NCBI GenBank assembly: GCA_038886535.1
Contig: JAVZXS010000003.1
Location: 50,369-114,368, forward strand
Reading direction: 5' to 3'
Length of the DNA stretch: 64,000 nucleotides
DNA from: Candidatus Micrarchaeia archaeon
GTDB taxonomy: Archaea > Micrarchaeota > Micrarchaeia > CABMEP01
The position numbers were made by a program. Of this stretch, positions 12,001-15,000 are shown piece by piece (within the stretch, counting starts at the first letter, position 1; each line of letters begins with the position of its first letter).

Positions 12001-15000
12001 AACTTCAACCTTGGCCGCCTCGATCTTATCTACCTCCTTCACCTCTTTGGTGAGCGTGATAGGCTGGACTCCTTTTGACCCATCTCTATATATTGCAATT
12101 GCCTTGAGTCCAAGCTCCCATGAAGTCATATATGCATTATAGATGTCTTCCACTGTTGATTCCTTAGGCATATTAACCGTTTTCGAAATAGCACCCGATA
12201 TAAATGGCTGGACAGCAGCCATCATTTTGATATGGCCAAGGTAATGAATGAATCGTTTGCCATTTGCAGGCTTGAATGCGCAATCGAATACAGGTAGATG
12301 CTCTTCCTTCAGGTGTGGTGCACCTTCTATAGTTTCTTTATCATCTATGTATTGCATTATTTCATTTATCTGTTGTTCTGTGTATCCTAATCTCTTAAGT
12401 GCGATAGGAACCGTTGAGTTTACTATCTTCATCATTCCCCCGCCAACTAGCCATTTGTATTTAATTAATGCAATATCCGGTTCTATTCCTGTTGTATCAC
12501 AATCCATCAGGAATCCTATCGTGCCTGTAGGTGCAAGGGCAGATATCTGTGCATTTCTATATCCATACATAGAACCAGATGCAAACGCATGTCTCCATGC
12601 TTCAATCGCAGCGTTCCTTAAATAGTGAGGTGCTTTATCACTTATGGATTCAGCTTGATCAAGATGCATCTTTATTACTTCTAACATTGATTCCTTGTTC
12701 ATTTCGTATTTGTTGAATGACCCCATTCTCTTTGCAAGCATAGCTGATATATAATAGCCATAACCTGTCATCAACGCACTTACTGCAGCTGCATATGCTC
12801 TTCCTTCATCACTATCATATGGAAGTCCGCATGCCATAAGCAGAGCCCCCAGATTTGCATAGCCCAAACCAAGAGGTCTAAAGTCGATAGAATTCCTTTC
12901 AATTTCAGGTGTAGGATAGGCTGCATTACCTACTATGATTTCTTGTGCAGTTATCATTATTGCAACTGTATGCTTGAATTTTTCAGTGTCAAATCTTCCG
13001 GTTTCTGGATCAAGATATTTCAGTAGATTTATTGATGCCAAGTTGCATGCAGAGTTGTCAAGAAACATATATTCGCTGCATGGATTGGATGCATTTATCC
13101 TACCGCTTGCCTTGCAGGTATGCCACTTGTTGATAGTAGTATCAAATTGTATGCCCGGATCTCCACATTCCCATGTTGCTTCTGCAATCTCTTTCATTAT
13201 AGTTCGTGCATCTAATTTTTCACATTCTTTTCCAGTTGTCACATATTTTGTTGAGTATTCTTTTCCTTCTTTTACTGCTTGCATGAATTCATCTGTTACT
13301 CGTACAGAATTATTAGCGTTCTGGAAAAAGATATTAGAATATACTTCTCCATCAAGAGAACCATCATAACCCAACTTTATTAGATCTTTTGCCTTTCTTT
13401 CCTCCTTTGCCTTGCACCAGATAAATTCTCTTATGTCTGGATGATCTACATTTAATATAACCATCTTAGCAGCTCTTCTTGTCTTTCCTCCAGATTTTAT
13501 TACTCCTGCAAATGCATCATATCCTTTCATAAACGATACAGGGCCAGATGCCTTTCCACCACTCGACAAATGTTCTTTTGATGATCTAAGCACAGAGAGA
13601 TTAACTCCAGCACCAGATCCATACTTAAACAACATTCCTTCAGTTACTGCGAGCTGGAGGATAGATCTCATGTCGTCCTCTACAGAATTGATAAAACACG
13701 CCGACCCCTGAGGTCTCTTCTCAACCCCGAAATTAAACCACACAGGACTGTTAAATGCTGCGTATTGATTTACAAGTATGTATGTTAATTCATCACTAAA
13801 TATTTTTGCCTCATCAGCAGAAGCAAAATATCCATCCTTCTTTCCCCATTCTGTTATTGTTCTTACCACTCTGTCTACCATCTGTTTAACGCTTGTCTCT
13901 CTTTCAGGAGTGCCCAATTTTCCTCTAAAGTATTTAGAAGCAGCGATATTGGTTGCAGATTGAGACCACGTAGCTGGAACCTCTACATCTTTTTGTTCGA
14001 ATATTTTCTTTCCATTCGCATCCATGATTACTGAATCTCTTTTCTCCCACATTATCATGTCATATGGATGTACTCCTTCTTTAGTGAAAACCCTTTGTAT
14101 CTTATATTCTGGAAGCTCTATATCTTTCTTTGCCATCATTACACCCCATCTTTTCATTTTTAGTGATTTATACCATCTGCCCAACTATATTTCTTATAAT
14201 TTAAATGTTGATTACTAGAATACCACCTTATTCAACTTTTAATTTTTTGAACACATTATATAGTGGTATTTTACTTTTTAATAATCAACATTTAGTGATT
14301 GAAATTTCTTACTTTTGTTTATTTATAAATCTTTGCTTTCACGTCGAAATTTACGCAATGTATCTTTTAAAAATTCTGCATTTTTTGTCCATTTATTTGT
14401 TTAAATGATAAAATAAGCAATTTAAACAAAAAAATAAGTTCATTTATATATTATAAAATTTTTTTAAACTAAGATATTTAATTATTTTATTTTGTTGCAC
14501 TATTAATTCTATTTTTTAAGACGAAGTGTAATTCTTAATGAATCCAGATCTTTAATATTCATATCTATAAATAGTAGATTATTTACTTTTTCCTTTTAGA
14601 ATTTTTATTTCATTAAGGACATCATCGATTGTCTTAAATTCTTTATATACCGCTGCAAATCTAATGTATGCAATGTCGTCGAGCTTTCTAAGTCTTTTTA
14701 GGACCATTTCACCGATGTGTTTACTTTCAACCTCTTCAGATTGCTTTGTTCTAAGTTCTCTTTCAATATCCTCTACAAGTTCTACGATCTTATTATAGCT
14801 TACAGGCCTTTTGCCTACGGATTTTATTATACTATTTATTAGTTTTTGTTTATCAAATTTTTCTCTTTTTCCGTCTCTTTTTATTACAACTATTATGCTC
14901 TCTTCAGGTCTTTCATACGTTGTGAATCTTTTTTTGCATGAAGGACATTCTCTTCTTCTTCGTATCACAGTACCTTCATCCGTATCTCTAGAATCTACTA

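Follow-up and report, generated by a model that had tools for sequence, protein, structure and literature searches.

A predicted NrdR operator with bacterial rules behind archaeal TATA boxes in two DPANN phyla

Sequence comparisons support the view that an NrdR operator that follows the bacterial rules of sequence and spacing stands behind an archaeal TATA box across two DPANN phyla. The focal case lies in a 64,000-nt stretch of a Candidatus Micrarchaeia genome (contig JAVZXS010000003.1, positions 50,369–114,368; this whole stretch is the window), in which paired NrdR boxes are present on the minus strand at 14298–14283 (box 1, promoter-proximal) and 14266–14251 (box 2), 32 bp start to start, with an intact nrdR directly upstream of the operator and nrdJ. 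We consider it highly probable that this pair of boxes works as an NrdR operator, a prediction that draws on the observed sequence and spacing, the position and conservation of the pair, its co-occurrence with nrdR and the intact contact residues of the repressor.

The nrdR-nrdJ locus: boxes, genes, promoter and leader

Read on the plus strand, box 2 (14251–14266) is ACACATTATATAGTGG and box 1 (14283–14298) is AATCAACATTTAGTGA; between them lies a 16-bp linker (14267–14282), constant in length and varying in sequence across the family. The experimentally defined operator rules (PMC13584703) place C4 and G13 8 bp apart, with at least 63% AT between them and a linker of 15–16 bp whose sequence is free, and an A6T change is tolerated in vitro (PMC13584703). 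Both focal boxes match the published core C.W.WW.W.G (PMC13584703) and have C4 and G13 at this distance, with A or T at 7 of the 8 intervening positions in box 1 and at all 8 in box 2. Box 1 retains C4, A6, A8, T9, T11 and G13. Box 2, which is nearly invariant within the genus, retains C4, A6, A8, T9 and G13 and carries A instead of T11, the mirror of A6T, where either A or T is tolerated at positions 6 and 11. Coordinates and published rule thus bear out the initial annotation in its description of two boxes with 32-bp spacing, downstream of a BRE/TATA promoter and ahead of nrdJ. Its scores of 15 and 13 of 16 had to be revised: box 2 reaches 14/16 and box 1 11/16 on the plain consensus, and 15/16 and 12/16 on a degenerate string that was composed after viewing strict-pattern matches, toward which the relaxed counts tilt slightly. 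A candidate third box at 14198–14213 was rejected; it scores 9/16 and fails the core rule, and the segment is the 3′ arm of the leader hairpin described below.

The upstream gene, nrdR (14579–15052, minus strand; likely start at 15037, MKCPFC), encodes a transcriptional repressor with a Zn ribbon (PF22811, residues 6–47) followed by an ATP cone (PF03477, residues 54–141). It scores 185.6 bits against TIGR00244 (cut-off 124.65), to which the H. volcanii control gave no match, and aligns with solved NrdR chains at E values of 1e-33 to 5e-35. With residues numbered by an ungapped match to the solved chains and the equivalence of K53 and K50, the focal protein retains the four Zn cysteines (C3, C6, C31, C34), RRRR (R26–R29) and the base-contacting D15 and R17. 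Also present are the ATP-cone residues K53, R54, E59, K65, K72, F127, V130 and Y131, whose S. coelicolor counterparts are K50, R51, E56, K62, K69, F124, V127 and Y128; passages of PMC9110341 and PMC13584703 describe the roles of these contact residues. E75, retained in most NrdRs, is G here. The downstream gene, nrdJ (11239–14139, minus strand; start at 14139 or 14136), encodes a B12-dependent class II ribonucleotide reductase (NF005122, 1478.6 bits, cut-off 859; TIGR02504, 606 bits) with domains PF08471, PF02867 and PF12637 and no PF03477, hence without an ATP cone. Among the several reductases of the genome only this cone-less nrdJ has a pair: none was found ahead of the C2 cone-type nrdJ and operon heads, the C15 nrdD or the C18 fragment, or ahead of nrdR itself.

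The TATA box of the nrdJ promoter, TTTATAAA (14322–14329, minus strand), is invariant in the genus (G000, G093, G273, G304, G051, L260, L379 and G574, in our labels). One of these close relatives, L379, was added by a metagenome scan of 80 loci. Adjoining the TATA box is a purine-rich element (14330–14339, minus strand) that we take to be BRE-like, given this adjacency and general knowledge of archaeal promoters. On the gene strand box 1 begins 31 nt past the first T of the TATA box, leaving a gap of 23 bp, and would lie about at the transcription start, with box 2 at about +33 to +48. A second TATA-like word near 14172, downstream of the operator, is found in G000, G093 and G273 and is absent in G304. 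A putative Shine-Dalgarno-like GGGGTG (14142–14147, minus strand) stands ahead of ATGATG.

The presumed 5′ leader can fold into a three-helix hairpin (14202–14294, minus strand; −25 kcal/mol; z −5.33; 0/200 shuffles) whose 5′ arm is operator sequence and contains both boxes, and which offers a second possible reason for sequence conservation in the genus. Two-sided changes occur in 6 of 32 pairs, along with G-U pairs, among seven sequences, a number too small for covariation to be tested firmly. The hairpin is confined to the genus and poorly formed in G051. Some invariant positions of the boxes, among them C4 of box 1 and box 2's central TATA, are not part of the helices. An Rfam search of window positions 13900–15300 for a cobalamin riboswitch or other family returned only a chance lncRNA match inside nrdR (E 0.66).

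Distribution of the paired boxes

The pair is found at the same place, with changing linker, in 9/9 genomes of the family; G391 and G230, from other genera, have better pairs than the focal one at this position. nrdR itself, previously counted in 20 of 31 genomes, is present in 177/401 genomes of our Micrarchaeota sample, in 9/9 of the focal family and in 134/171 genomes of a second DPANN phylum. A strict whole-genome pattern was matched in 29 of 401 Micrarchaeota genomes, compared with 0/401 in the reversed control, and 24 of the 29 loci, when fetched, lay ahead of nrdR or a reductase. In upstream tests with the published rule, a pair was present in 31/79 nrdR-bearing and 2/71 nrdR-lacking Micrarchaeota genomes. 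Under relaxed scoring it stood ahead of a reductase or nrdR in 57/79 versus 3/71, at spacings of 31–33 bp only, and the remaining 22 of the 79 nrdR-bearing genomes had no pair within the 1.3 kb read. Within families, the corresponding counts were 8/10 versus 0/6 (f3), 1/3 versus 0/22 (f4), 19/21 versus 2/12 (f5) and 6/8 versus 0/19 (f10). All such genome counts include kin and are not independent, and Fisher tests on them overstate significance. Seven nrdR-lacking loci in which BLAST gave no reductase frame were left out of the upstream tests; scanned whole, 0/7 had a box of at least 14.

The same association was seen in the second phylum, with a pair in 32/134 nrdR-bearing and 1/37 nrdR-lacking genomes (control 1/171), and 28 of the 30 loci fetched were ahead of nrdR or a reductase. 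In both phyla the operator is thus nearly confined to genomes with nrdR. The three Micrarchaeota exceptions, G097, G192 and G215, are incomplete genomes (88–92%) that have a good pair and no nrdR found even with a Zn-ribbon profile; other members of their genera carry nrdR. Altogether 16 of the 18 Micrarchaeota families examined contain the pair, and the claim that the arrangement recurs in other families of this phylum stands, extended to a second DPANN phylum.

Spacing and sequence are both constrained. Partner boxes peak at 31–32 bp (50 of 63 anchors; no other offset in the range 18–55 exceeds 5), and in the archaeal matrix C4 is conserved at 85–100%, A6 at 98–100% and T11 and G13 at 100%. 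On the protein side, the DNA-contact residues D15 (or E) and R17 are retained in nearly all archaeal NrdRs, which serve class I-like, class II and class III reductases. A TATA-like hexamer lies at most 60 nt upstream in 51/60 sites, compared with 12/182 control windows, at 5 to 52 nt from the box; in 4/60 it is downstream.

Weight of the focal pair, mechanism and alternative readings

The case for the focal pair rests on position and phylogenetic profile, not on genome-wide rank. By the archaeal matrix the pair is weak (17.8 bits, second within its own genome), and box 2 deviates at T11, which is invariant in the 54 training genomes. It had been called the best-scoring and only strong intergenic pair, a description overturned by C2:20363, ahead of a DUF530 gene, which equals it on the plain consensus (25 vs 25) and exceeds it by a matrix built without the focal family (21.6 vs 17.8 bits). 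DUF530 was rejected as a general target, with a pair in 7/7 genomes of the genus and 0/16 others. Because 9 of the 54 wrong spacings tried attain 17.8 bits genome-wide, rank alone is not significant and was dropped as proof. This result, together with 142 pairs in the focal genome that satisfy the loose published rule at 30–33 bp, would be expected if the boxes were a chance match in 21% GC DNA, and their place inside the hairpin 5′ arm would fit retention solely as an RNA hairpin, with NrdR inactive here. Such a reading is most improbable: 0 of 5000 dinucleotide shuffles of the 439-bp nrdR-nrdJ spacer attain the focal score, the pair follows nrdR presence across and within families, G391 and G230 keep their better pairs in leaders without the hairpin 3′ arm, and the invariant bases of both boxes noted above are unpaired. 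We also think it very unlikely that NrdR has ceased to be the regulator here, leaving the operator as a relic or in the service of another protein. Pairs persist in the three genomes without detectable nrdR, and the focal genome lacks a pair at nrdR and has G for E75; however, the protein has kept every known DNA- and nucleotide-contact residue, the three genomes, which are incomplete, come from genera in which nrdR occurs, and 68/71 nrdR-lacking genomes have no pair.

From a functional operator we infer a start site, binding, repression and a blocked step as follows. NrdR from the adjoining upstream gene would sense dATP/ATP via its ATP cone. In bacteria, according to passages of PMC9110341, the dATP/ATP-loaded tetramer uses two Zn-ribbon pairs, one for each box, three helical turns apart, and the DNA is kinked; by analogy, the loaded archaeal tetramer would grip both boxes and kink the DNA. 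TBP and TFB would probably still load, and the archaeal RNA polymerase would not be recruited or would be unable to open the DNA, blocks for which passages of PMC2995911 provide precedent in LrpA and MDR1. As dATP falls, NrdR would be released and nrdJ transcribed, resulting in dATP feedback on the genome's one reductase without its own ATP cone. Most likely, dATP/ATP-loaded NrdR would sterically block the archaeal initiation complex, and the step affected is probably polymerase recruitment. TATA-operator geometry is not fixed, as expected of plain steric occlusion. Repression at another step, through blocked TBP/TFB loading or an early road-block, or with a second RNA layer in which the hairpin gives 5′-end protection or attenuation, is possible but not likely. 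Exclusion of TBP/TFB would fit the 19/60 sites with a TATA hexamer starting at most 13 nt from box 1, the 4/60 with one 17–19 nt downstream of box 2, and G051, where the TATA box is 11 nt closer to the box than in the window, but the 23 bp at the focal promoter leave these factors room. The stability, two-sided changes and G-U pairs of the hairpin speak for an RNA layer, and its restriction to one genus, its poor form in G051 and the small number of relatives against it.

Origin is a separate matter. The initial annotation had a bacterial repressor bringing its own operator, which was then fitted to the archaeal machinery; this account is not upheld by NrdRs that cluster by family and by the variable distance to the TATA box. 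Joint arrival of nrdR, operator and nrdJ from a bacterium as a cassette, later adapted to TATA promoters in the lineage, is unlikely. In its favour are the nrdR-nrdJ order and the NF005122 type, which recall the nrdRJ operon of Streptomyces (PMC13584703), the nearest named non-archaeal NrdRs, which are from Bacillota at about 50–56% identity, and the haloarchaeal nrdR-nrdAB operons reported as transfers in passages of PMC3019208. Against it, NrdR is found widely in both DPANN phyla and serves three reductase classes, and in an unrooted tree with a narrow bacterial sample archaeal sequences group by family, those of the focal family make up a single clade (SH-aLRT 98) that is not placed within the sampled bacteria, and 73 bacterial NrdRs, one Woesebacteria sequence excepted, lie across a branch from the archaeal ones. 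Any transfer would therefore be old, given this grouping, the branch split and the occurrence in 177/401 and 134/171 genomes; the tree pointed to no donor of archaeal NrdR.

NrdR-NrdD fusions, known systems and significance

We collected 111 NrdR-NrdD fusion proteins, all named ones archaeal, in which the complete repressor, in most cases including its own cone, is joined to the large glycyl-radical enzyme; source labels assign them to Micrarchaeota, Nanobdellota/Woesearchaeota, Aenigmarchaeota and Asgard. The operator is retained in 12 of 16 fused genes examined, and no NrdR besides the fused copy was found in fusion-bearing genomes. Internal start codons do not explain the fusions, as none is conserved and L464, L460 and L162 lack one ahead of the second cone. 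We lean slightly toward the view that DPANN archaea possess a full NrdR regulon with bacterial operator grammar, in which the repressor was fused at least twice to NrdD, giving a reductase that would bind its own gene's operator, with dATP sensor and enzyme in one chain and, in G510, whose fusion has a single ATP cone, that cone serving both.

As described in passages of PMC9110341, PMC12051234 and PMC13584703, the bacterial regulon (S. coelicolor nrdRJ; E. coli nrdAB, nrdHIEF and nrdDG) resembles the archaeal one in protein architecture, contact residues, 16-bp box consensus, 31–32 bp spacing, nrdR-nrdJ order and the targeting of reductase operons and often nrdR. The bacterial operator lies over −10/−35, whereas the archaeal one is mostly downstream of TATA in a host with BRE/TATA promoters; the long 41–43 bp spacing of streptococci was seen at 0/100 archaeal loci; and NrdR-NrdD fusions and, here, limitation of the pair to a cone-less nrdJ are further differences. 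LrpA and MDR1, in passages of PMC2995911, are archaeal steric repressors that share a site downstream of TATA, over the start region, and the predicted polymerase-recruitment block, but they are helix-turn-helix proteins, unlike the Zn-ribbon/ATP-cone tetramer NrdR, whose operator is the same in bacteria and archaea. In haloarchaea, too, nrdR stands beside reductase genes, in nrdR-nrdAB operons; passages of PMC3019208 describe these as class I operons attributed to transfer and show no sites. RbkR, an archaeal bifunctional riboflavin kinase/regulator, is a precedent for an enzyme with a DNA-binding domain regulating its own pathway, as the fusions may; according to passages of PMC5397151 it combines a wHTH with a small kinase that also senses, unlike the whole-repressor NrdR-NrdD.

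The presence of NrdR in 22% of archaeal genomes is already in print (PMC13584703). A passage of a 2014 review (PMC4009431) gives the NrdR box as absent from archaea, a 2025 preprint (10.1101/2025.03.28.645925) gives both NrdR and its boxes as absent, and passing statements elsewhere, as in a passage of PMC12051234, have NrdR controlling some archaeal reductases. Published NrdR-box surveys whose methods we checked were bacterial in aim; a 935-site profile run on GTDB genomes, described in passages of PMC9110341, may contain unreported archaeal matches. We found no archaeal NrdR site or NrdR-NrdD fusion in the literature searched, which did not extend to the original 2005 description of the box or to other subscription papers.

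The predicted sites would supply what is missing from the literature for two DPANN phyla, with one operator design apparently unchanged ahead of sigma-type and TATA-type promoters, and provide a rare, fully specified predicted regulon for uncultured DPANN archaea. If the fusions bind DNA, they would be ribonucleotide reductases controlling their own transcription. The two-part bacterial switch for DNA-building-block genes appears to precede those genes in many small-genome archaea as well.

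The nrdR-nrdJ spacer and a second site

In the window, placed at G000:C3:50369-114368 (G000 is the genome that holds it; C2, C3, C15 and C18 are its contigs), nrdR (15052/15037-14579, minus strand) is the upstream neighbour of the class II reductase gene nrdJ (14139-11239, minus strand), which lies 440 bp beyond it. Read in the direction of the gene, BRE-like purines (14339-14330) adjoin the TATA box TTTATAAA (14329-14322), followed after 23 bp by NrdR box 1 (14298-14283), a 16-bp linker and box 2 (14266-14251), all on the minus strand; about 110 bp past box 2, a Shine-Dalgarno-like GGGGTG and ATGATG form the nrdJ start region. 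The boxes score 14/16 and 11/16 on the plain consensus, and both fit the core rule C.W.WW.W.G of PMC13584703. The contig is archaeal, since the window also holds an archaeal-type leucyl-tRNA synthetase (TIGR00395, over the cut-off) and a TrmY-like gene, and its gene order recurs in the genus. Convergent with nrdJ is a tandem double Lrp/AsnC-type regulator of 355 aa (10062-11129, plus strand).

On comparative sequence grounds, the two boxes are very probably a real NrdR operator, one of a regulon widespread in DPANN. A loose rule returns 142 pairs at 30-33 bp across G000 (33% GC). By a matrix trained on 54 genomes, with the focal family excluded, the focal pair reaches 17.8 bits, a value that wrong spacings attain in 9 of 54 genome-wide trials. 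The initial annotation had called it the best-scoring of six pairs in the core contigs, but it ranks second to a pair on C2 (21.6 bits). Genome-wide rank does not set the focal pair above chance; position does. None of 5000 dinucleotide shuffles of the nrdR-nrdJ spacer attained 17.8, and a pair occurs at the same position, with a varying linker, in the other eight genomes of the family (G093, G273, G304, G051, G391, G230, G573 and G574).

The higher-scoring pair (G000:C2:20363-20410; L037:1364-1411 in the fetched locus) is flanked by the topoisomerase VI A gene on one side and a DUF530 gene on the other; the DUF530 start follows after 123 bp, and the TATA-like word of that gene lies some 46 bp downstream of the pair. 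All 7 of 7 genomes of the genus retain it (one weakly), with sequence changes that preserve the boxes, versus 0/16 others. The DUF530 gene is probably a genus-specific member of the NrdR regulon, activation or repression being alike possible. A TGCAATATTG word kept ahead of this pair and a AATAGTGCAACA-like motif, conserved in the genus in the nrdR-nrdJ spacer (about 14470-14505, minus strand; about 170 bp upstream of the TATA box), are possibly another regulator's site.

Pairs and nrdR across two phyla

TIGR00244 NrdR was found in 177 of the 401 Micrarchaeota genomes sampled (unpublished G197 counted). A strict two-box pattern occurs in 29/401, against 0/401 for the reversed control; the focal pair does not conform to it. 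Among the 29 loci fetched (30 matches), 24 immediately precede nrdR or a reductase and 4 fall inside unrelated genes, three of these in genomes that lack nrdR and the fourth in G000; the remaining 1 is intergenic at another place. For an upstream test, 80 nrdR-bearing and 80 nrdR-lacking genomes were chosen across families, class II/I and class III reductases were located, and as much as 1.3 kb of upstream DNA was scanned. Scores were obtained for 79 and 71 genomes, and seven loci, none with a strong box, were left out. The published rule in both boxes with a summed score >=24 selected 31/79 nrdR-bearing versus 2/71 nrdR-lacking genomes, and under this rule control spacings picked out, of 100 loci, 1 at 24-27 bp, 3 at 35-38 bp and 0 at 41-43 bp. 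Relaxed pairs (one strong box plus a partner at 31-33 bp) were found in 57/79 versus 3/71. They are present in 16 of 18 families, with a clear within-family contrast in f3, f4, f5 and f10, which bears out the earlier claim of recurrence in other Micrarchaeota families. Of 63 anchors, 36 have a partner box 32 bp away and 14 have one at 31 bp, any other offset accounting for at most 5. The nrdR-lacking exceptions with a pair (G097, G192 and G215) yielded no Zn-ribbon match, but their completeness is 88-92% and other members of their genera have nrdR. The degenerate score was composed after the strict-pattern loci were known, kin were counted though not independent, and a few nrdR-bearing loci first came via the pattern search, the same places being named by the reductase search. 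The controls less prone to bias are the published rule, the reversed pattern and the spacing profile.

Some loci have additional features. A small thioredoxin/glutaredoxin-like gene sits between operator and nrdJ in G192 (L084:1200-1500), and gaps of 340-380 bp at f10 loci L028, L027, L202 and L206 may hold a similar gene; in f10 loci a TATA-like word lies downstream of the pair. In G154, a strong pair directly past a TATA-like word (L078:1498-1545) precedes a secreted-looking protein, a possible non-reductase target; 550 bp away, on the opposite strand, is a gene that we take to resemble thyX.

NrdR was also found in 134 of 171 genomes sampled from the phylum to which G401, a Woesearchaeota record, belongs. 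The strict pattern occurs in 33/171 (32/134 nrdR-bearing and 1/37 nrdR-lacking; control 1/171), and of the 30 loci retrieved 28 precede nrdR or a reductase. Relaxed pairs accompany 28 of 48 nrdR loci in 47 genomes, one of the 28 being a duplicate and one intragenic. A record labelled Methanosarcinales (G402, locus L267) groups with this sample; its label is probably wrong.

The repressor and its fusions to NrdD

The focal NrdR retains the four cysteines, D15, R17, RRRR and the nucleotide-site residues listed in passages of PMC9110341. Among free-standing NrdRs (78 Micrarchaeota, 39 Nanobdellota), R17 is invariant and position 15 is D or E with a single exception. Judged by sequence, archaeal and bacterial NrdR have the same reading head and the same operator. 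An unrooted tree built from 205 NrdRs, with a weak backbone, groups archaeal sequences by family, the focal family forming one clade (SH-aLRT 98). From a narrow bacterial sample, 72/73 sequences fall on one side of a branch (support 82), and one Woesebacteria sequence falls among the archaeal ones. The tree fits a long residence in DPANN, with or without an ancient transfer.

Sixteen genomes, 8 of Micrarchaeota and 8 of Nanobdellota, encode an NrdR joined in frame to NrdD, the fused copy being the only TIGR00244 match in each (loci L467 in G153, L468 in G220, L459-L466, L149, L151, L162, L164, L170 and L173). Among proteins 480-1530 residues long, to which the search was restricted, there were 115 hits (P0001-P0115), with 111 clusters carrying Zn ribbon, ATP cone and NrdD domains. 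Most are unlabelled; the taxon labels given are all archaeal (Micrarchaeota, Woesearchaeota/Nanobdellota, Aenigmarchaeota and Asgard/Heimdallarchaeota), and three JGI entries already bear a double name. The Zn-ribbon motif is retained in 110/111, the catalytic CRL in 109/111 and the C-terminal glycyl-radical motif in 32/111. Several fusions without the last are followed by a small NrdD-like frame (near the 3′ end of L459, L462, L465 and L467), which we read as a split radical domain. In G510 (L466) the Zn ribbon directly adjoins a single ATP cone. The fused NrdD parts come in two types that are about 25% alike, which points to a minimum of two fusion events. A pair lies upstream of 12/16 fused genes (9/10 in one set; G113, G285 and G367 with a pair, G086, G114 and G152 without), or of 10/14 once the two that the pattern search had supplied are set aside. 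The fused chain may bind DNA; RbkR, described in passages of PMC5397151, is an archaeal precedent in which enzyme and regulator are likewise joined.

Promoter geometry, leader and significance

Since archaeal transcription starts roughly 25-30 nt past the TATA box, box 1 would lie near +1 and box 2 at about +33 to +48. Passages of PMC9110341 and PMC13584703 describe a bacterial dATP/ATP-loaded tetramer that grips both boxes, kinking each about 90 degrees. Both boxes conform to the 2026 mutational rules of PMC13584703, the sole departure (T11A in box 2) mirroring the tolerated A6T. LrpA and MDR1, at sites just downstream of the TATA box, block polymerase recruitment (passages of PMC2995911), and NrdR bound to the focal operator would probably do likewise. 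A TATA-like hexamer lies <=60 nt upstream of 51/60 sites versus 12/182 control windows, which were further upstream and often coding; it is downstream only in 4/60 and absent in 5/60. Distances among the 51 (19 at 1-13 nt, 15 at 14-24, 16 at 25-45, 1 beyond) argue for steric occlusion at whichever step is within reach, and not for the fit to the archaeal machinery that the initial annotation proposed.

Among the reductase genes of G000 only the nrdJ of the window, which lacks the ATP cone, has a pair; none was found ahead of the cone-bearing class II gene on C2, nrdD on C15, or nrdR. Transcriptional feedback may therefore stand in for the missing allosteric cone. On C15, nrdD accompanies topoisomerase-like and radical-SAM-like genes, and on C18 a reductase fragment lies beside a methyltransferase-like and a dUTPase-like gene; both contigs may be mobile or foreign, because a search for nrdD in four family members found none.

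The nrdJ leader (14294-14202, minus strand) folds as a stack of three helices (-25 kcal/mol, z -5.33), and the operator makes up the 5′ arm of this hairpin. Across seven genus sequences 85% of cells pair, with two-sided changes in 6/32 pairs; 1/500 shuffles attained the covariation score, which derives from few related sequences and the G000 structure. G-U pairs point to action as RNA rather than as a cruciform, and 5′-end protection is our best guess for its role. The hairpin is genus-limited (absent from G391 and G230, weak in G051), and an Rfam search of the leader gave no family match.

PMC4009431, cited in the initial annotation for the absence of the box from archaea, does state this in the passages seen, with the protein in some; passages of a bioRxiv text (10.1101/2025.03.28.645925) have both NrdR and its boxes absent from archaea. 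Passages of PMC9110341, PMC12176259 and PMC12051234 call NrdR rare in archaea or have it controlling a few archaeal reductases, sites not given; those of PMC13584703 place it in 22% of archaeal genomes, the box scan having been run on bacterial genomes. Haloarchaeal nrdR-nrdAB operons appear in part of PMC3019208, and passages of PMC7446807 contained nothing on archaeal NrdR. Our literature search found no archaeal NrdR site and no NrdR-NrdD fusion; supplements and subscription papers may hold some. Published accounts either deny this probable, widespread DPANN regulon or assert it and give no sites. Bacterial-type repressors acting on TATA promoters are ordinary for archaea and the logic is known, so that, taken by itself, the operator extends them soundly and is no surprise; the NrdR-NrdD fusions raise the significance beyond it.
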